From Candidatus Zixiibacteriota bacterium (lineage in GTDB: Bacteria; Zixibacteria; MSB-5A5; GN15; FEB-12): DNA of 64,000 nucleotides. The position numbers were made by a program, and so were the translations under genes. This document shows, piece by piece, positions 1 through 64,000 of the stretch (positions within the stretch are counted from its first letter, which is position 1; each line of letters opens with the position of its first letter). The DNA is taken from assembly GCA_034439475.1 (NCBI GenBank), contig JAWXAN010000034.1, positions 14,340-78,339 of the forward strand, in the 5' to 3' direction. A model generated the notes under the pieces. It was not told the DNA's origin, searched no databases, and saw only the letters and a list, made by a program, of their open reading frames with translations.

Positions 1-1019
1 CATTTGGACATGACACTGTGTCTGCCATAGCTCTCAATCATGCCGTACACAAGGCATTTGATGAAAAACAGATATATCGCATTGATCATTACCTCGGCAA
101 GGAGACTGTTCAAAATATACTCGTCTTTCGTCTCGGTAACTCGATTTTCGAGCCGCTGTGGAATCGACGATATATAGACAATATTCAAATCTCTGTTTCT
201 GAATCTTTGGGTATAGGCTCTCGGGCAGGATATTTTGACAGTTCGGGCATAATTCGGGATATGATCCAGTCGCATATTATGCAGGTGTTCACCCTTATCG
301 CAATGGAACCCCCGGCATCATTTGAGACCAATGCCATTCGTGATGAAAAAGCCAAAGTGCTCAAAGCTGTCCGCTATCTCAAATCCGAAGAAATCAGCAC
401 CCATGTTGTCCGCGGTCAGTATGGCCCCGGTTCGGTCGGCGGAGAGAAGGTCAAAGGGTACCGTGAAGAAAAAGATGTCCCGTCCGTCTCCACGACCGAG
501 ACCTACGTAGCGACGAAAATAACAATCGACAACTGGCGCTGGTCGGGTGTACCGTTTTACATCCGCGCGGGTAAGCGACTTCCCAAACGGGTAACCGAGG
601 TCGCGATTACGTTCAAAGCCCCGCCGCATTTACTTTTTGATCTCTCGGGGTGCGAGAATCTGACGCCCAATGTTCTTCGCCTGCGAATTCAACCACAAGA
701 GGGCATTTCGCTTTCGCTTGGAGCAAAGGTACCCGGGCAGGCTCTGCAAATAGCTCCGGTACGCATGGATTTTATGTACTCTGAATCGTTCGGCGTGGCT
801 TCGCCCGAAGCCTATGAACGCCTCATTCTTGATGCCATCACCGGCGATTCGACATTGTTTGCCCGCGAAGACGAAGTGGATTTGTCATGGAAAATTATCG
901 ACCAAATTACCAAGCATTGGGATAATGCTCCGCTTCATATCTACCCCGCTGGTGAGTGGGGACCGACTGCGGCCGATGAACTTGTTGCCCGCGATGGACG
1001 GAGATGGTTGAGGCTATGA
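1..1019 (+). CDS. zwf: glucose-6-phosphate dehydrogenase, C-terminal ~339 aa (5' end outside window)
   Basis: Frame 3 is open from the window edge and the GTG at 18 is internal. The translation contains the G6PD signature block 'IYRIDHYLGKETVQNI' and the following conserved blocks. Confidence 0.93.
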   Translation, partial: FGHDTVSAIALNHAVHKAFDEKQIYRIDHYLGKETVQNILVFRLGNSIFEPLWNRRYIDNIQISVSESLGIGSRAGYFDSSGIIRDMIQSHIMQVFTLIAMEPPASFETNAIRDEKAKVLKAVRYLKSEEISTHVVRGQYGPGSVGGEKVKGYREEKDVPSVSTTETYVATKITIDNWRWSGVPFYIRAGKRLPKRVTEVAITFKAPPHLLFDLSGCENLTPNVLRLRIQPQEGISLSLGAKVPGQALQIAPVRMDFMYSESFGVASPEAYERLILDAITGDSTLFAREDEVDLSWKIIDQITKHWDNAPLHIYPAGEWGPTAADELVARDGRRWLRL

Positions 1020-2095
1020 ACTCAACACGAATATCCGATGATGATGAAATTCTCGATGGCGGGTATCTGCCAGTCAATGCCGAGCGTATTGAAGCGCGGC
1101 TCAATGAAATATGGCAGAAGACAAATCATCAGGATCGCGAGAACAGACCGATGGTCAAACTCTGTCTGTCCAATGTCATAATTGTTACCGATGCCTTAAA
1201 GCGTCCTGAGGCCGAGAACCTGGCCAATGACCTTGCAAAAATGCAGCCAGCGCGGATACTACTGATCGTTATCGATGAAGTATTGAAGACCTATTGTTCA
1301 TTTGTCCGCACTGCCTGTGCCTTTAACGAAGAGACAGATTCCGTTGTCTGCTGGGAGATTGTAGAAATTCTCTCTGATCCGGCTCGTTCAGACAATATCG
1401 CTGGTGCGGTCCGATCTCTGTTGGTTGATTCGGTTCCAGTGCTGACAGTGGATTGCCGTCTAAGTTCCTCTACACCGCACTTCGATAGCTCAATCGCGAA
1501 TCTCTCGAGTTGTTATTTTTTTGGTAACGACGATGAACGTAATGCTCGATCGACAATTCCTCGCTTGTCTCTCTTATGGTATAAACTGCTGCCAGTCCGT
1601 GAACTTATAAGTACGCTTTTTTCAGCGCGTATGGCGAAAAACCGCGCGACCACACTTTCCAACTGCCGAGTGCTATTTTCGAAGGAATGTAGAGATGAGG
1701 CTTTGCTGCTCTTCGGTTGGATTATTTCGCGGCTCGTTCAATCAGGGGGTGAGGTGCGGGCCTCAATGTCGGTAGAAGTCAGGACGCCTATGGGAGTTTC
1801 GCACATTGATTTCGTTCGCAAGCCCGAAACATCAAATGCCTGTATCGAATTTGATTTCATAGATAGAACATCCGCCAATATCGATCTGTCCAGCGGCGCG
1901 TGGGACAACGAAGACATGCCTCGTGAGTTCTCGTTTGAGATGGACGGCGTCACCTGTCGTCGAGCCTCCAACGAGACAACACTCGGTCGCTATATCATCA
2001 ATGCTTCAAAGCAAAGAGTCGAATTCGAAGAATACGAAACGGCTAACACGGTCATTCGTACCACACTTCATGATATTGATTCGTTTACAGCATAA
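1004..2095 (+). CDS. OpcA-like glucose-6-phosphate dehydrogenase assembly protein (putative)
   Basis: It overlaps the zwf stop; an alternative ATG at 1016 forms an ATGA overlap. The block order '[38 protein letters not shown]' parallels actinobacterial and cyanobacterial OpcA as I remember it. Its position after zwf is the classic one. Confidence 0.6.
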
Positions 2096-5960: not shown

Positions 5961-7076
5961 TTAGAAATAACGAGTTAAAAGAGGTCCAGGGTACAGCGTG
6001 TCGTGCCGGGCGAAAAGCATGAACGCCAAAACGTTTCGGTGCTCACCCTGCGAGAGGTCTTTGTTGCCCGTTTCGGAAAGAATCATTCCTTTTTTGGAAT
6101 CAAATGATTTCAACAAGACTTTCTTGCATCGCTCTACAATCGGGTGATTTTCCTGACCGGTCAAACAGAAGCAGAGGGCAACTTCCACGATAATGTCCGA
6201 AGAAGTCTCTTTCAAAATTTTATCGATACGCGCTTCTAAGCGGTCAGTTACCCATCCATACTCTGCAGAATCAACCGGTTGTTGATAGTATTGACTTGCG
6301 GCAAGAATAATGTGCGTTAATCCGTAAATCTTGTCTGAGTAACGATGCTCATCCAGACGATTGTCGGGCATTCGGTCAAAAACATCTCGAAACACCTCCA
6401 TGTATTCTTTCCTAATGTCGGCGATACCCAAATGTTCGAGGAAGTACACGAAATTCACGGCTTTGGCCGCATAAACACGTATCACGTCGGGATCAAGCAA
6501 GAATTTAGATAAATCGTGCTGACTGATTTTTGCGCGCGCACGGGCCATGAGGGGGCCAACCGTCGACGAATCCAAACCGTAATCGGCCAGCCAGTTCAGC
6601 TGACTTAGGAGTTCAAGGTAGACGAGTTCCTCGTCCCATTTTTTGAACATGGCACGTCGAAGACGGTTTTTTCGCGTATCTCTTTCAAAAGTTTCTGCCT
6701 CTTCAGCAATGCGTCGTGCGAAATAGTGCGGATTGTTCAAAGAATCGACATCTATTTGCACCTTTGCTATGGCGTATTTAGCATGATTGACCAACCATGG
6801 AACGTAAGCTGTGTCACCGGTAGCGCGGTACATGCGCATCGCATAGTGTCGCTGAACGTAAGAACTAAAAGTTGGCAAGGCTTTATCAAAAGTCGCTCTT
6901 ATCTGCTCTGCCATATGTCGATAACGGCTTGTCGCGTCCGGATCCGAAGCAAATGACGGTGCACATATGAAGACAATCAATAAGAATAGAAGAAAACTCA
7001 AACAAAAACGACGAAGCAATCGAGCAAGGCTGGCGTTAGCAGAGTTTACATACGAAACCGTTCTTACGGCGCTCAT
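5961..7076 (-). CDS. hypothetical secreted/membrane-anchored protein (last gene of envelope operon)
   Basis: A 371-aa ORF with an N-terminal hydrophobic anchor or signal ('FLLFLLIVFICAPSFASD'). It has a 4-nt overlap with the upstream gene. I recognised no family with confidence. Confidence 0.6.
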   Translation of the reverse strand: MSAVRTVSYVNSANASLARLLRRFCLSFLLFLLIVFICAPSFASDPDATSRYRHMAEQIRATFDKALPTFSSYVQRHYAMRMYRATGDTAYVPWLVNHAKYAIAKVQIDVDSLNNPHYFARRIAEEAETFERDTRKNRLRRAMFKKWDEELVYLELLSQLNWLADYGLDSSTVGPLMARARAKISQHDLSKFLLDPDVIRVYAAKAVNFVYFLEHLGIADIRKEYMEVFRDVFDRMPDNRLDEHRYSDKIYGLTHIILAASQYYQQPVDSAEYGWVTDRLEARIDKILKETSSDIIVEVALCFCLTGQENHPIVERCKKVLLKSFDSKKGMILSETGNKDLSQGEHRNVLAFMLFARHDTLYPGPLLTRYF

Positions 7077-58814: not shown

Positions 58815-59365
58815 CTTCCGCATCCGAGCGCGAATTGTCCCTCGGAAAAATTCATAGCTTGACGCGTATTGCTCTTTTTTCCGCGCTTGTCTATGTCCTC
58901 GCCTATGCGACTGCCTATGCGATAAATGTTAAACTGACCTTCTTCATTGTCTTCACCGCCGGATTTGTCTGGGGAGTTTTCTCAGGAATGCTTGTTGGCG
59001 TCATCGGAACCGGACTTTGGTCATTTTTAAATCCCTATGGCCCGGTGAACCTGCCTGTTATGCTGGCGCAGATGGGAGGCATGGCGTTAAGCGGAGCAAT
59101 CGGCGCCCTGTACCGCCAGACATCATTCTGGAAAATGTCCGCCGCGACAAAGATTCTCTCACTTGTAATTACCGCTCTGATCTCAACCCTTGCCTTTTAC
59201 ATCCCGGTAAACATTGTCGATGCCGCAATCAACCAGCCGTTCTGGCCGTGGTTCTATACTGGCATGCTCTGGTCAGGCCCGTCGCTTCTTTCAAACGCGC
59301 TTATATTTCCCCTCCTCTTTGGAGCGACACTTCATCTCTATAAACGGGAGACGTCTCGATCATGA
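58811..59365 (+). CDS. polytopic membrane protein (ECF-transporter S-component-like, putative)
   Basis: The ATG at 58811 forms an ATGA overlap with the upstream stop. It has about 5-6 TM helices. The family assignment is weak. Confidence 0.45.
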   Translation: MTSASERELSLGKIHSLTRIALFSALVYVLAYATAYAINVKLTFFIVFTAGFVWGVFSGMLVGVIGTGLWSFLNPYGPVNLPVMLAQMGGMALSGAIGALYRQTSFWKMSAATKILSLVITALISTLAFYIPVNIVDAAINQPFWPWFYTGMLWSGPSLLSNALIFPLLFGATLHLYKRETSRS

Positions 59366-61365
59366 AGAGAATTGCCGCGCTTGTTCTGCTCGGTGCGCTA
59401 ATGTTCTGCAATGCCACCAAGGCTGATTCTGTCGATTCCTCCCGCTCTCCGCTTCCTCCAGTTTATGATACAATCGATGTCGCCGACACCCTCGATGTGA
59501 AGGATAGTTTGGGAACCGAACGCGACCGGCTCAAAGATTTTGAAGCCCGCATTCGCGTTCGGCAACAACTTGAAAAAGAACGTGAGCCTCGTCCAAAACC
59601 TTTTTTTTACTTCGACTCGCTTTCGGCATATCTGTTATCTCCGCGGCTGGATAACGGCTCCGCGGTGCGTAGGTTTTTCACCCGCGATGCCGGTGATTAC
59701 TTTCGCACTCACCCCGGGTTTTTCTCTCTTGCCCATCAGACCACACCGATGAGGACAACCGTGCAGCCGTTCGGACTTCAGGGCGACCGCATGAACTATC
59801 TTATGGCTGGTCAACAGTACCGCCCCTTCGAACATATTATAGAACCGGACGGTTTGGTTGACCTCAATGATCTGCCGACCACGCTTGATGAGAGTATCTA
59901 TGTCCTGCCGGCCGGAGCAGGGGCTGTTTTTGGCGGCGACGGGAACGGTGTGGCGACCCTTTTGACTATACCGATAAAACGTGACACAGCATCCCCGCAC
60001 ACGGCATTCATTGTCGACAAGGGCTTTTATAGCTACTCGAATGTACGAGGCAGATACGCCAACAATTTTTCAAACGGACGAAAACTGACAGCATCGCTCG
60101 GCTATAAAACTGCCGATGGTCTTGTTGTTAATCGTCAGCATGACTCATACACCTACACCGCCGATCTCTATCAGCCTCTGACTGGCCGGTACGCGCTGAA
60201 AGTGGCGGGATCGCTCAATGATGCCGAGGGACCGCTTCCGTTGTATCCTGATATTGGCGGTTCGTCAATTCAGCGCAAGCGGTTTGATCGTTCCTTGCGC
60301 GTTGCCTTTCTCGCCCACACCAATAATTTTACTGCAACAAATTCATTCGGTTACAGTCATTTACGCCAAGGCTCCAATATTGATGGCCCGTACAAGGGGC
60401 GTTTTAATATCACAGGGCATTCTCTCGAGACTGGCCGCGAATGGCTCAAGGGGAATAAGGCTTTCTCCTCGGACGTCGAACTGCACTCAAATCAATATGA
60501 TGACGGCTTTGAGCGTTTCGACCGGTATCATGGTGAACTTTCATTTGGTTTTGTGACTCTTACAAAACCTTCGAATTACGCTGTGCGCTTCTCGGCGCGT
60601 GCGGTTGAAGGTGTCGGACTGCTTCCGTCGGTATCGGCAGTATGGCAGAAAGAATCCGAGAATCTATTTTTCATGTTCTCTGCGCTTTACCAGGAACGGG
60701 AACCGACTCTGCATGAACTTCATCTTCGTCATCAGCGATCGCTGGTCTATCCGTCGTCGTTCGGGATCTATTCCGATATCGGCAATCCGAATTTGGAGCA
60801 GGAGCGCCAGCTTGTCGGCTCAGCCGATGTCGGATGGGGGAATGTCGCGCGATCGCTGTGCCTGTCGGTTGCCGGCGGAAAGATATTTGACGGAATCGAT
60901 TGGCGATACCGCAACAGCATTGACGAGACAACATTCTTTCCAATGAACGGGAATGTGACATTTCTAAATGTAACCGCGCGCGGGAAGTTGCAGTGGAAGG
61001 ATGTCGTCACCGCCTCAGCTGGCGCGAGTCATTACACCGTGGATTACGATGCCTTTGCTGATAGGGCATACACACCCGATTTTCATTTTTTCTCAAACCT
61101 TGAACTTCATTGGTTCTGGAAAGCAAAACTGATTCATCTCTATGGGTACGGCGAGTTTATTTTCCTGGGGCCATACGAAGGATACCAAGGTCGATTCCTC
61201 GGCGAGATTCCGCTCCTGAATGTCTCTCTCTCATTCCAATTGAATACCTTTCGCTTTCATTATGTCATTCAGAATCTGCTTTCGAATAGCTATGAGCCGA
61301 GGGAATATTTTGAGGATGTGGGGCGATTCAATTCGTATGGTTTTATCTGGAATTTCTTCGATTGA
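59362..61365 (+). CDS. outer-membrane beta-barrel protein (TonB-dependent-receptor-like, putative)
   Basis: It has a signal peptide, is 667 aa, and has a Y/F/G/N-rich alternating pattern with an aromatic-rich C-terminus ('YGFIWNFFD'). It overlaps the upstream gene. Confidence 0.5.
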   Translation: MKRIAALVLLGALMFCNATKADSVDSSRSPLPPVYDTIDVADTLDVKDSLGTERDRLKDFEARIRVRQQLEKEREPRPKPFFYFDSLSAYLLSPRLDNGSAVRRFFTRDAGDYFRTHPGFFSLAHQTTPMRTTVQPFGLQGDRMNYLMAGQQYRPFEHIIEPDGLVDLNDLPTTLDESIYVLPAGAGAVFGGDGNGVATLLTIPIKRDTASPHTAFIVDKGFYSYSNVRGRYANNFSNGRKLTASLGYKTADGLVVNRQHDSYTYTADLYQPLTGRYALKVAGSLNDAEGPLPLYPDIGGSSIQRKRFDRSLRVAFLAHTNNFTATNSFGYSHLRQGSNIDGPYKGRFNITGHSLETGREWLKGNKAFSSDVELHSNQYDDGFERFDRYHGELSFGFVTLTKPSNYAVRFSARAVEGVGLLPSVSAVWQKESENLFFMFSALYQEREPTLHELHLRHQRSLVYPSSFGIYSDIGNPNLEQERQLVGSADVGWGNVARSLCLSVAGGKIFDGIDWRYRNSIDETTFFPMNGNVTFLNVTARGKLQWKDVVTASAGASHYTVDYDAFADRAYTPDFHFFSNLELHWFWKAKLIHLYGYGEFIFLGPYEGYQGRFLGEIPLLNVSLSFQLNTFRFHYVIQNLLSNSYEPREYFEDVGRFNSYGFIWNFFD

Positions 61366-61457
61366 AGGAAATTTTACTTCGATAACAAATATTGGGCGGT
61401 GTCCTAATTTGAAAATAGGGGCAATCTGATTGCAAGATGAAGTACGGGTTTAAATTC

Positions 61458-61486
61458 TTGACATTTTTAAGCCGATCCATTATATT
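61458..61486 (+). promoter_or_regulatory. near-consensus sigma70 promoter of the Panacea-domain gene
   Basis: TTGACA (61458-61463), a 17-nt spacer, then TATATT (61481-61486). It lies 38 nt upstream of the GTG start. Confidence 0.55.
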
Positions 61487-61524
61487 AAAATACACATAAC
61501 ACAGCGGTTTGGTGAGGGTAGTCG

Positions 61525-62058
61525 GTGCGATTTCAGAAGAGAAAATTTAAGGAGCTGGTTCTTTATATTTCAGCCAAGTGTCAGGAACATGAGTTCTTTG
61601 GCAAGGTCAAGCTGAATAAATTACTGTTCTTTTCTGATTTTACAGCCTTTAGACGTAGAGGGCTGTCAATTACGGGAGCCAATTACCAGAAATTGAAAAT
61701 GGGGCCATCCCCTCGTCTTATGCCGTCTATCCTTGACGAAATGATTGCCAATGCTGAATTGGCTATCATACGGAAGAAATGCTATGATCGTATCCAGCAC
61801 CGGCCAACTCCGCTTAGAGAGTCGAATCTTGAATTTTTTGAGGCATGGGAAATTGATATTGTAAATGATATGATCGTGAAGTACAAAGACCAAACTGCCG
61901 ACGAAATTAGTAATCGGTCACATAAGTTTATAGGTTACGAATTGGCGAGCCTTAAAGAGGACATTCCGTACAGCACCGTTTATTGCCGAGAACAAGAGCC
62001 GTCGGATATTACTCCTGAGATTATCAAAATAGCAGTCGCACTAGAGCGACAGGCTTAA
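61525..62058 (+). CDS. Panacea (DUF4065, SocA/PanA-like antitoxin) domain protein
   Basis: The GTG start follows a GGTGAGGG RBS. 'GKVKLNKLLFFSDFTAFRRRGLSITGANYQKLKMGPSP' matches the Panacea/DUF4065 core pattern (KL.KLLYF.D......G.pITG..Y....GPv). Confidence 0.7.
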   Translation: MRFQKRKFKELVLYISAKCQEHEFFGKVKLNKLLFFSDFTAFRRRGLSITGANYQKLKMGPSPRLMPSILDEMIANAELAIIRKKCYDRIQHRPTPLRESNLEFFEAWEIDIVNDMIVKYKDQTADEISNRSHKFIGYELASLKEDIPYSTVYCREQEPSDITPEIIKIAVALERQA

Positions 62059-62063
62059 TCGAC

Positions 62064-62363
62064 TTAGTTCTCCCCCAACTTTTTATGAAGAACTCTACAG
62101 ATTTCAACCTTTCTGTCATTGATGCGAAAGAGAACCGACACGGAAAAGCCTGAACGCATAGGCCGCGCTTTGTAGCAACGGACATTTGTCCCCTCTACCG
62201 TATCGCAAATGTCCGCATTCCGCTCCAAATGGTATCTTATGCCAAAGATGACCTCGTCAATCTCAGAACAATCACTGATTTTGTCTCGGTGGCACTTTAA
62301 TTCTTTGTAGGCTTCATTCGTCATGTCGACTCGTCTAAATCGTAGAGCACTCTGATCCATCAT
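62064..62363 (-). CDS. hypothetical small protein, RelE/ParE-toxin-like C-terminal pattern (tentative)
   Basis: A 99-aa ORF whose start overlaps the transposase stop by 4 nt. The C-terminus 'GFSVSVLFRINDRKVEICRVLHKK' resembles the '..y.iiYri.d..v.I.rvlH..' end of RelE/ParE toxins. An alternative start is M14 (62324). Confidence 0.35.
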   Translation of the reverse strand: MMDQSALRFRRVDMTNEAYKELKCHRDKISDCSEIDEVIFGIRYHLERNADICDTVEGTNVRCYKARPMRSGFSVSVLFRINDRKVEICRVLHKKLGEN

Positions 62364-63220
62364 TTACCCTCTGGCTTTGATCTGGCTCCATGGCTATCAC
62401 AAGCATCGACCAAATCGTTTATAGTCCACACGCTCTTAGTAACCCCAGCCTCCATTGCGGGCGTAACTCTCAAAGACCTGTGAATCCTGACAAAATTGTA
62501 GTAACCGAAGTGTAATGCAATAGAAGCCTCAAGATTTTCCAACTTTTTGGAGAAAGCGTCGGTTAGCCTCGTTAAGCGTCGAATACTCATCCTCATTAAA
62601 AGATTGCTCCTCTCAACATAGCTTGTCGAGATATGTCCTTCTTCTGGACGGCCAACCCTCACTGACCTTTTAATTGATGAAACTCGCGGCGGACTATACC
62701 TACCCGGCCCGACTGGTTCTGCTTCGTATGACTTTACAATCTGACCGTAATCGACGTTAGCACCGAACACACGATCAATCGCCTCTATATATGAGGGCAT
62801 AGCATCAGATGATATTTGGACTCTGTTAGCCAAACGACCGGATAACTCACTAAGGAATTGTGTCGTAGTTTCAAGATTGCGTTTGCCAACCCTATAAGCA
62901 GGGACAAGACGAGTGTCAGCGTCTATTGCAACGAATGTCCAGAAATCACCAGTTCTGTTTTGATCGTCAGCCTCGGTTAGTCTGCGTTGATGCCGACCTA
63001 CATACCCCCAAATCTCATCAAGCTGAACCCGACGGCATTGGAGATCATGGAATTCACTTGCCATGATATTCTTGCAACCATTACCAACCTTGACCATGAG
63101 TCTTAGAATTGTATCTCGGTGGACATTGGTAATCCGTTCAGTTGATCGAACTGAAGCACCCTCGACAAGACACCTGATAACAACTTCTTGCTTGTCTCGC
63201 TTCAAGTTATTCATTGACAA
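62360..63220 (-). mobile_element. IS1-family transposase gene (single-ORF type with N-terminal HTH); IS ends not identified
   Basis: 'VQLDEIWGYVG' and 'STSYVERSNLLMRMSIRRLTRLTDAFSKKLENL...YYNF' parallel IS1 InsB 'DEQWGYVG' and '[30 protein letters not shown]..HYLN'. I could not locate terminal inverted repeats. Confidence 0.75.
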
Positions 63221-63246
63221 ACTCCTGCCGATAAGGTATAATGAAG

Positions 63247-63315
63247 TGGAGTGCCGGGGGCTCGAACCCCGTGGCGTCAGATGTCAAGCCCGACCCAGAA
63301 ACCATTTCGCACCCC
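63247..63315 (-). other. 69-nt tRNA-like element (intact acceptor stem with G3:U70 and canonical T arm; no normal D arm)
   Basis: The minus strand reads GGGGTGC-GAAATGGTTTCTGG-GTCGGG-CTTGACA-TCTGAC-GCCA-CGGGG-TTCGAGC-CCCCG-GCACTCC-A. It has a 7-bp acceptor and a 5-bp T stem with a TTCGAGC loop. The 6-bp 'anticodon' stem has a loop with C at position 37. It is not a canonical tRNA. Confidence 0.35.
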
Positions 63316-63516
63316 AAATCCGGCCCTCGAACTTACCCTTCGGGGGCTTCTGTTTTCGATCTCCTCAACAATATATGTAATAGCATCGAGTAGTACAATA
63401 CTTATTTGAAAGTATTTCATATTTTTTTATCGTGAGCTTAACGCCAAAAACATCTTGACAATCTTTTCGCCTCCCATACATTGTCATTAGAAACTCAAAC
63501 CTTTGGAGGCCTGATT

Positions 63517-64000
63517 ATGGCTGAACAGTCTGGCGGTACGGCTCCTGATTTAAGGGGTAAAAAACAGCGGAGCCCAAACTTCCCCGTGATGGGTCTAAAA
63601 GAGGCTGTCGAAAAAATCAATGCCATCTATGCAAAAGACGGTAATGCGGGTAGTACCCGCGAGGCCGTCCTAAAGCACTTAGGGTATAAGGGAGAACATG
63701 GGGCCTCATTGACCGCAATTTCCGCCTTAAGAAAATTTGGATTGACAAGTGAGGAAAATGGGCGTATTGTCCTTACAAGAGACGCACTTTATATCGTCTT
63801 GAAGGGTGGTAGCGAGGCTGAGAAGTTAGCCGCTCTTAAGAGATGCGCCTTAAAGCCGGAAATCTACAAAGAGTTGTGGCGAGAGTTCGCCGAAAGGGGT
63901 GGACTTCCCGGCGATGATACTCTGCGAACCTTGTTGGTGATGGAACGGGGATTCAACCCAAAGGCGGTTGAGGGGTTTATTAGGGATTTTAGGCAGACGC
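63517..64000 (+). CDS. hypothetical protein, N-terminal 161 aa (3' end outside window; absent from ORF track)
   Basis: The ATG lies 7 nt after a TGGAGG SD, and the frame stays open to the window end. The translation is 'MAEQSGGTAPDLRGKKQRSPNFPVMGLKEAVEKINAIYAKDG...'. A TTGACA box sits at 63456-63461 upstream. Confidence 0.6.
   Translation, partial: MAEQSGGTAPDLRGKKQRSPNFPVMGLKEAVEKINAIYAKDGNAGSTREAVLKHLGYKGEHGASLTAISALRKFGLTSEENGRIVLTRDALYIVLKGGSEAEKLAALKRCALKPEIYKELWREFAERGGLPGDDTLRTLLVMERGFNPKAVEGFIRDFRQT

Follow-up and report, generated by a model that had tools for sequence, protein, structure and literature searches.

We have analysed a 64,000-nucleotide (nt) stretch of DNA from a Candidatus Zixiibacteriota bacterium (the window; all window coordinates are positions in this stretch, and L-numbers denote comparison loci), and focus here on two genes near its end that face one another tail-to-tail. 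One encodes a Panacea-domain protein (PanA) and the other a small protein with a predicted ParE/RelE-like fold, and we consider it probable that this convergent pair represents a two-gene toxin-antitoxin (TA)-type module, made up of a putative antitoxin and a putative toxin from a previously unannotated family. Judging from the comparison of homologous loci, the pair of putative toxin and antitoxin is a non-operonic variant of the PanAT systems, and not a disrupted operon. The earlier note on this DNA, made from its letters alone, had called the Panacea gene an orphan and had listed a disrupted TA locus, a non-canonical convergent Panacea-toxin pair and a transposase-linked addiction module as the possibilities. 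It is the second of these that is borne out, with a homologue and a Panacea gene of the same subfamily facing each other tail-to-tail in six other loci, and the label of orphan can be dropped, as the partner of the Panacea gene is the convergent small gene, which is found tail-to-tail with the same PanA subfamily elsewhere.

The convergent pair and its homologues

The genes and signals of the pair within the window are these:

61458-61486, + strand: sigma70-like promoter of the PanA gene, TTGACA-17-TATATT, 11/12 matches
61525-62058, + strand: PanA, a 177-aa Panacea-domain protein and putative antitoxin (GTG start; PF13274)
62064-62360, - strand: putative toxin (PanT), a ParE/RelE-fold protein of 98 amino acids (aa), or of 99 aa if the ATG at 62363 is used
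62050-62035, - strand: weak terminator-like hairpin and T-rich tail past the toxin stop, lying antisense inside the 3' end of the PanA gene (pattern match only)

PanA matches the Pfam model PF13274 (SocA_Panacea) above its cut-off over residues 30-135 (E 3e-15; 57.6 bits, cut-off 25.7), and the tail of approximately 40 aa that extends beyond this domain carries a conserved, family-specific motif, IPYxxVxCR...DIT. The promoter agrees with the sigma70 consensus at 11 of 12 positions, and the PanA gene of L099 also has a similar promoter of its own. The original description of 61525-62058 as a Panacea gene with its own near-consensus promoter has therefore held up, as has the observation that no toxin gene lies on its strand, given that no further gene follows it on the + strand. 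No DNA-binding domain is present in the 177-aa protein.

Across a spacer of 5 nt (62059-62063, read from the sequence) lies the stop codon of the small open reading frame (ORF), which was first described as 99 aa long and convergent on the Panacea gene at a distance of 5 bp; the spacing agrees with that description, and of the two candidate starts the second ATG (62360, 98 aa) is favoured over that at 62363 by gene callers and by the N-termini of homologues. A word-indexed search with the small ORF returned only the query. An exhaustive HMMER search of 1.8 billion representatives revealed four relatives, and a profile search of a 5.8-billion-protein collection added a fifth, giving a family of six members in which the five homologues are 98-102 aa long and 33-41% identical. 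Because five homologues of similar size exist, the small ORF is, on this comparison, a genuine gene rather than a chance ORF. A toxin-family scan of viral contigs and a plasmid search for the toxin found none. The conserved columns of the family are LxRNA..C, TNV..Y and a C-terminal K, with R47, N48, C52, T58, N59, Y63 and K94 invariant, and these residues do not distinguish gyrase poisoning from ribosome-dependent mRNA cleavage.

The likeness of this protein to RelE/ParE, which the earlier note had seen at its C-terminus, stands in terms of fold and not in terms of sequence. Pfam and NCBIfam gave no match for the five family members scanned, the ParE_toxin, RelE, HigB and YoeB models included, and a sequence profile search of the PDB with the family found no ParE/RelE match. 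AlphaFold2 returned a predicted local distance difference test score (pLDDT) of 46 for the single sequence, and one of 86.3 (predicted template modelling score 0.76) when supplied with the six-sequence alignment. The latter model has the topology b-a-a-b-b-b, in which a strand, a helix and a long helix are followed by three strands that form an antiparallel sheet. When it was compared with the PDB using Foldseek, the top 24 matches were all toxins of the ParE/RelE superfamily. The best of these was ParE2 from the PaaA2-ParE2 complex (5cw7; E 9e-5, template modelling score 0.71-0.73), with further matches to ParE (6xrw, 8c26), including that of P. aeruginosa, and to M. tuberculosis ParE2, HigB2, HP0894, PrpT, YafQ and RelE, and the small protein shares 14-20% identity with the best-matching structures. 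A ParE/RelE fold is supported by this predicted model at the level of fold rather than of sequence family. As a separate observation, the small ORF gave a weak match to the PADLOC candidate phage-defence family PDC-S31 (C-terminal part; E 3e-5, residues 31-76).

It is the genomic context of the family that carries the case for a two-gene module. Every other family member has a Panacea gene across its 3' end on the opposite strand, and the same arrangement is seen in L121, whose 105-aa ORF is a candidate distant relative discussed further below:

L099 (119-kb contig of a metagenome-assembled genome, MAG): toxin 6001-6297; Panacea 6298-6849 (- strand); abutting, gap 0
L100/L101 (coordinates of L100): toxin 351-650; Panacea 647-1186 (- strand); 4-nt overlap
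L102: toxin 237-545; Panacea 532-1089 (- strand); 14-nt overlap
L103: toxin 212-508; Panacea 509-982 (- strand); abutting, gap 0
L104: toxin 45-350; Panacea 347-565 (- strand); 4-nt overlap
L121: 105-aa ORF and convergent PanA; 3-nt gap at the 3' junction

The orientation is convergent in 7/7 loci of the toxin family, and the 3' junctions across these seven loci span the range from the 5-nt gap of the window to a 14-nt overlap. The Panacea partners of L099, L100 and L102 also match PF13274 in Pfam, whilst those of L103 and L104 are partial genes that align to the same PanA subfamily. Window PanA shares 42-51% identity with those partners of the toxin homologues that are complete or nearly so, 29% with the 72-aa PanA fragment of L104 and 37% with the PanA of L121; by these alignments, the PanA partners of the toxin homologues form one subfamily. 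Where flanks are available they are unrelated: in L099 the pair lies between a ribonucleotide reductase and an acetyltransferase, and L100 has an unrelated lysine-rich ORF upstream. Because the pairing recurs with unrelated flanks, the conserved unit is exactly two genes, arranged tail-to-tail. No antitoxin-like gene was found upstream of the toxin in the homologous loci examined, and no trace of a transposase was found in the five pair loci (L099-L104).

Several considerations weigh against this assignment and need to be borne in mind. There are only about seven loci, some of them on very short contigs, and L099 and L103 are close relatives, which brings the number of independent contexts to about five. 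In L099 and L102, no convincing sigma70 promoter was seen before the toxin gene. Comparison with the ParE/RelE hidden Markov models gave no sequence match for the toxin family, the fold call depends upon a model built from only six sequences, and the idea of antisense interference set out below is drawn from geometry alone.

The same PanA subfamily is also found with co-directional partners. In L106/L107, which were the only loci added by a metagenome scan with the PanA alignment, a 34% identical PanA with the tail IPYFTVFCR is followed 3 nt later by a co-directional 88-aa ORF. In L157/L158 the PanA proteins are of 222/217 aa and the end of the gene is overlapped by a co-directional 95-aa ORF, and in L088 a co-directional partner also stands beside a related PanA. 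Because the same PanA subfamily has co-directional partners in L106/L107 and L157/L158, the convergent form looks, so far as sequence can report on this, to be derived from an ordinary co-directional PanAT operon. When the 98-aa family was compared with the small partners using hhalign, the alignments were in register and not significant (E 0.12 for L106, E 0.012 for L121); the MAFFT alignment of these heterogeneous small partners is unreliable, and we do not claim homology to the 98-aa family.

Published PanAT systems are operons in which the antitoxin or the toxin comes first (Kurata et al. 2022, PMC8832971; Ernits et al. 2023, PMC10440598), and the pairs were defined through guilt-by-association, with genes no more than 100 nt from each other and conserved in two species or more (PMC8832971). 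Convergent pairs are not mentioned in either paper, and in the wider searchable literature convergent transcription is tied to type I systems, which use an RNA antitoxin. PanA is known to neutralise many unrelated toxins, ParE-like toxins included, by direct binding, and this can occur via the Panacea core or via terminal extensions (PMC8832971, PMC10440598). The Panacea domain is not considered to be a transcriptional autoregulator, and the authors favour a sensor role for it (PMC10440598).

If the window pair works in a similar way, then the 98-aa protein would poison a core process, which might be gyrase (as for ParE) or translation (as for RelE/HigB), and PanA would neutralise it by direct binding, by analogy with the validated PanAT systems. 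The binding surface would probably be formed by the Panacea core, by the C-terminal tail specific to this family, or by the two together. The PanA and toxin genes would each need their own promoter. Because a gap of 5 nt or less leaves no room for a terminator, the two transcripts must enter each other's 3' ends, and strong transcription of PanA may damp toxin expression by transcriptional interference or antisense pairing. The ratio of the two proteins in this type II TA pair would then be set by separate promoters together with interference across the 3' overlap.

The potential importance of this arrangement lies in how such systems are recognised. Both the definition of type II TA systems, PanAT among them, and the searches for such systems are based on operons, and a protein-protein TA pair kept tail-to-tail with overlapping stops would escape operon-based searches. 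For roughly half of Panacea proteins no conserved two-gene locus was detected (PMC8832971), and the PanA of a convergent pair would count among these. The pair also represents a natural test case for how a toxin/antitoxin ratio might be controlled without shared transcription or autoregulation, and with the small family the PanA repertoire gains one more variant of a toxin fold.

The neighbouring transposase gene and rival readings

Beyond the start of the putative toxin gene lies a third gene, related to the transposases of the insertion sequence (IS) IS1:

62360-63214, - strand: IS1-family (DDE) transposase-like gene, single ORF, 284 aa (PF03400; a TTG at 63220 would give 286 aa)

The earlier note had described the start of the small ORF as overlapping the stop of an IS1-family transposase, and this is the case: the TGA stop (62362-62360) sits within ATGATG, which provides the two candidate starts of the small ORF. 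The Shine-Dalgarno sequence of the small ORF, GAGGG, falls in the final transposase codons, and that of the transposase gene, AGGAG, is at 63222-63226; public gene calls place the transposase ATG at 63214 (284 aa) and the small-ORF ATG at 62360 (98 aa). Because of the TGATG stop/start overlap, the toxin probably shares transcription and translation with the transposase, expression of which is normally very low.

The transposase protein matches PF03400 (DDE_Tnp_IS1) with an E-value of 4e-9 and 37.3 bits (cut-off 24.1), and scores 64.7 bits against the NCBIfam equivalog NF033558, which is under the cut-off of 100. It belongs to a single-ORF IS1-like family, with proteins of approximately 273-280 aa and at least 7,998 database matches, and thousands of its homologues carry the annotation IS1 family transposase. 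The nearest relatives are 71% identical and the relatives listed are around 60-70% identical, and they are found across many phyla. Residues D66, D137 and E201, which are taken to be the DDE triad on the strength of the alignment, are invariant in the family and kept in the window protein, and the C-terminus of the latter extends approximately 10 aa beyond the family consensus, reaching the toxin start codon. The 64-kb window holds one copy of the gene, and among the 80 genome loci (L019-L098) we saw no evidence of multiple identical copies of the IS1-like transposase within one genome.

The earlier note had looked to other copies of the element in the genome as a way of defining its ends. There are no flanking inverted repeats at the window transposase, and no terminal inverted repeats were detected within 250 nt of either side in 77 related genome loci, where the best ungapped repeat match scored 6-12, mostly 7-8 nt exact, which is chance level; very degenerate terminal repeats could escape this ungapped test. 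The IS1-like family is either no classical IS or has unconventional ends.

The IS1 subgroups in ISfinder include a single-ORF type with passenger genes. In about 17 genome loci from Acidobacteriota and Verrucomicrobiota we observed a conserved orfB of approximately 100 aa that is translationally coupled to the transposase gene (L031, L032, L034-L036, L038, L041, L042, L045, L046, L049, L058, L060, L070, L072, L081 and L094). Its start lies 3-43 nt ahead of the transposase stop, and in L045 right at that stop; it has the pattern ...VPV.E.F.G.TVW.G.VEVF.L.GHPKA...VLE.PPV.SP..AV, with no Pfam match. Two further observations relate to individual members of the transposase family. In L109 (6114-10851; IMGVR_UViG_3300027902_000033) the transposase coding sequence is split at residue 89 by an insertion of approximately 3.8 kb, with the tRNA-like leader described below intact. 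L020 (1-1112) and L088 (2776-3887), which come from the same MAG (CAWHBU01), share a 1.1-kb repeat that is 99.7% identical and encodes a different DDE transposase of approximately 403 aa, upstream of two different IS1-like transposase genes.

Standard IS cargo was considered as an identity for the small ORF and rejected: tblastn against the 80 genome loci found nothing, a search of the ORFs of 160 transposase loci (80 genome, 80 viral) with the profile of the six-member family gave no significant match, and the orfB that is usually coupled to the transposase gene belongs to a family unrelated to the small ORF. The same profile search speaks against the suggestion that the ORF is untranslated sequence lying inside the IS, with L121 alone providing a probable distant relative. 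The 105-aa ORF of this locus is the only such candidate among the 160 loci, and looks like one even though the hhalign comparison was not significant. It is found on a phage-like contig with a terminase gene, where the transposase is 69% identical and the order is transposase, 105-aa ORF whose start overlaps the transposase stop by 1 nt as in the window, and then convergent PanA.

TA genes are found next to related transposase genes in other loci too. In L088 a PanA gene followed by a 123-aa ORF abuts the transposase 3' end, in L157/L158 the PanA-toxin operon ends 2 nt from the transposase stop or overlaps it, in L042 a PanA gene follows orfB on the 3' side of the transposase gene, and in L025 a PemK/MazF toxin gene starts right at the transposase stop. 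The closest transposase relatives with context, L118 (71%) and L202 (68%), have the tRNA-like leader and no PanA or toxin. Because five TA loci lack the transposase, and L118 and L202 lack the TA genes, the transposase and the TA pair are separable, yet their association is not random. We regard the pair and the transposase unit as separate modules that have been joined at least in the window lineage and in L121, and the TA pair is most likely an independent module beside the IS1-like unit.

Other readings of the locus need to be considered alongside this one. The triad might as a whole be one mobile addiction unit, an IS1-like element that carries a coupled toxin and a convergent PanA. Toxin and PanA would then stabilise the element or its host island, and both the order and the overlap are repeated in L121, many members of the transposase family have a coupled orfB of approximately 100 aa in the same slot, and PanAT or MazF genes abut the related 3' ends of L088, L157, L158, L042 and L025. 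However, the five loci with closer TA homologues (L099-L104) are without the transposase, L118 and L202 have the leader but not the PanA or toxin, no inverted or direct repeats bound a unit that includes the TA genes, and the window holds one copy of the transposase, and so we think this reading unlikely. Of the transposase-linked addiction module proposed at the outset, what stands is the linkage itself, in the L121 triad and in the TA genes that abut related transposases; the five pair loci without a transposase argue against the remainder. It seems highly improbable to us that the locus is a canonical TA operon disrupted by an IS that took the place of the antitoxin gene, leaving a solitary toxin with the Panacea gene as an unrelated neighbour, which was another suggestion of the earlier note. 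The transposase is over-long by approximately 10 aa and enters the ribosome-binding site of the toxin, as if an insertion abutted the toxin gene, and a genuine ParD/ParE operon lies 1.5 kb on in the same island. Against this, the homologous loci have a convergent PanA and none has an upstream antitoxin-like gene, five of them are without a transposase, the same transposase/toxin junction recurs in L121, and an intact toxin on its own would kill the cell if it were not neutralised.

A different view of the function is that the pair is a non-classical module, in which a PanA sensor is combined with a ParE/RelE-fold effector of abortive-infection phage defence, or in which the ParE/RelE-fold protein is a non-toxic regulator. 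The sensor role favoured for the Panacea domain in PMC10440598 is in line with this, as are the phage-like or defence-rich surroundings of relatives, with the terminase gene of L121 and the 510-aa upstream neighbour in L157 with a P-loop NTPase motif (identified by eye), and the weak PDC-S31 match. The window locus is however chromosomal and sits among core genes, and a role in defence is compatible with the TA reading rather than exclusive of it. We see this as possible, if on the doubtful side, and the two-gene module of putative toxin and PanA remains the reading that we prefer.

With respect to its surroundings, the trio of genes occupies a small variable island that is chromosomal and flanked by core genes. 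The neighbour upstream of the PanA gene is as follows:

59362-61365, + strand: 667-aa outer-membrane-type gene

Between this gene and the end of the window there are three ORFs, of 177, 99 and 286 aa. Identical proteins are found on about 20 metagenome or MAG contigs (SRR64482xx runs, JGI 3300020180, GCA_964602185.1), and 20/20 contigs with the identical transposase protein show the same locus. The island continues beyond the window (L013 9754-10586, L011 11993-13921) with a 267-aa gene without a family match, the start of which is at window 63517-64000. The ParD (87 aa)/ParE (119 aa) operon lies further along the island, 1.5 kb on; it is present, partly present or absent by strain, with some contigs being without ParE and others without a 66-aa ORF.

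A tRNA-Ala-like element at the 5' edge of the transposase gene

The leader of the transposase gene represents a separate and more unusual lead, which is outside our main verdict and is linked to a large and widespread transposase family. Three features are found here:

63214-63242, + strand: perfect sigma70 consensus promoter TTGACA-17-TATAAT, outward from the transposase gene, its -35 box overlapping the transposase start codon
63247-63315, - strand: transfer RNA (tRNA)-Ala-like element (TLE), 69 nt, 32 nt 5' of the transposase ATG (covariance model 78.6 bits)
63322-63348, + strand: GC-rich hairpin followed by a T-run, terminator-like, at the outer edge of the block kept with the closest transposase loci

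The acceptor stem of the TLE is 7 bp long, with G3.U70 and A73, and the element further has a T-arm of CGGGG-TTCGAGC-CCCCG, a long anticodon-like arm, a reduced or minimal D-arm and no encoded CCA. ARAGORN found no tRNA or transfer-messenger RNA (tmRNA) at this position, and Rfam gave none at E-values up to 1. The tRNA-like element that had been noticed beyond the transposase is nevertheless real, as judged by a covariance model and by covariation. The model, built from the window TLE and five relatives, detected the element in 13 further loci from several phyla, upstream of the transposase gene and on its strand. Its matches include those in L118 and L123, the closest relatives; an extra copy was found in L202 by eye. 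TLE loci comprise L019, L020, L021, L025, L027, L042, L053, L059, L060, L074, L098, L109, L118, L123, L125, L132, L160, L173 and L202, and the distance from the TLE to the ATG ranges across loci from 30 to 315 nt. In the analysis of structure covariation 91% of cells were paired, which is above all shuffled and slid controls. G3.U70 is present in 14/16 aligned matches, the other two being ordinary tRNAs (the window tRNA-Gln and the L061 tRNA-Leu), and GGG...UCCA, the alanine identity set, is invariant in the TLE while acceptor pairs 4-7 vary and covary. Where viral contigs match the 3' half of the TLE exactly, the sequence is in most cases a true tRNA-Ala(UGC) gene of a phage. We also considered whether the TLE is the attachment-site remnant of a tRNA-integrated island, and rejected this given that there is no full tRNA in the 20-kb locus and that the TLE travels with the transposase gene across phyla.

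Antisense promoters equivalent to 63214-63242 are present in L202, L019, L118, L123, L027 and L109, and the hairpin is at the same position in L118 and L202, the sequence conservation of these loci also ending there (seen for L202 in the alignment). The + strand of window 63214-63356, with its promoter, the complement of the TLE, and the hairpin with T-run, is a candidate discrete gene for an antisense small RNA (sRNA) of approximately 105 nt, and this design is also seen in L202, L118 and L019. In the searchable literature we found no description of a tRNA-Ala-like element linked to IS1-like transposase genes. One could imagine from this an undescribed mobile or semi-mobile unit, in which an IS1-like transposase without inverted repeats has an alanine-tRNA mimic at its edge, an opposed antisense sRNA gene and a 3' cargo slot, with the mimic RNA taking part in control, processing or targeting, and with the convergent TA genes held by antisense regulation of their 3' overlap rather than by operon autoregulation. 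We consider this decidedly unlikely; if it were true, the coupled cargo here would be a toxin of ParE fold, with a convergent PanA as its guard.

Comparison with known systems

The window transposase gene resembles the IS1 family in its DDE_Tnp_IS1 domain, its N-terminal helix-turn-helix and its single ORF (of the type of approximately 275 aa), and in that extra genes often follow the transposase gene. It differs in having no detected terminal inverted repeats, both in the window and in the 77 loci, in being single copy in the window, and in carrying at its 5' edge a divergent antisense promoter as well as a tRNA-Ala-like element. The TLE itself shares G3.U70, A73 and the T-arm with tRNA-Ala and the tRNA-like domain of tmRNA, but unlike these it is missed by ARAGORN and Rfam, its D-arm is reduced, its anticodon-like loop is variable and it has no tag ORF. 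The strong outward promoter at the 5' end of the transposase gene, and the predicted RNA complementary to the leader, are reminiscent of RNA-OUT from IS10, although the window antisense RNA would miss the transposase start codon.

With regard to the pair, both type I TA systems and convergent restriction-modification pairs have convergent units that overlap at their 3' ends, and in these an antisense overlap can control the toxin; what differs is that both partners in the window are proteins, and neutralisation would be expected to occur between proteins. The putative toxin has the predicted fold b1-a1-a2-b2-b3-b4 and the length of approximately 95 aa of the ParE/RelE superfamily (ParDE, PaaA2-ParE2, HigBA, YafQ-DinJ, RelBE), but its identity to the closest structures is 14-20%, with no match to the hidden Markov models, and its partner is PanA rather than an antitoxin of the ParD, RelB or HigA type. 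The closest comparison is with PanAT. The window genes differ from the published systems in being convergent with abutting or overlapping stops across the loci, in place of a same-strand bicistronic operon, and in having a toxin family that is without a Pfam model and has six detectable members only. What they share with these systems is a candidate antitoxin with a Panacea domain, a compact two-gene locus kept across species and a small partner protein of known toxin fold, ParE-like PanTs having been reported, and relatives of the window PanA subfamily do occur in PanA-then-toxin operons (L106, L157, L158).

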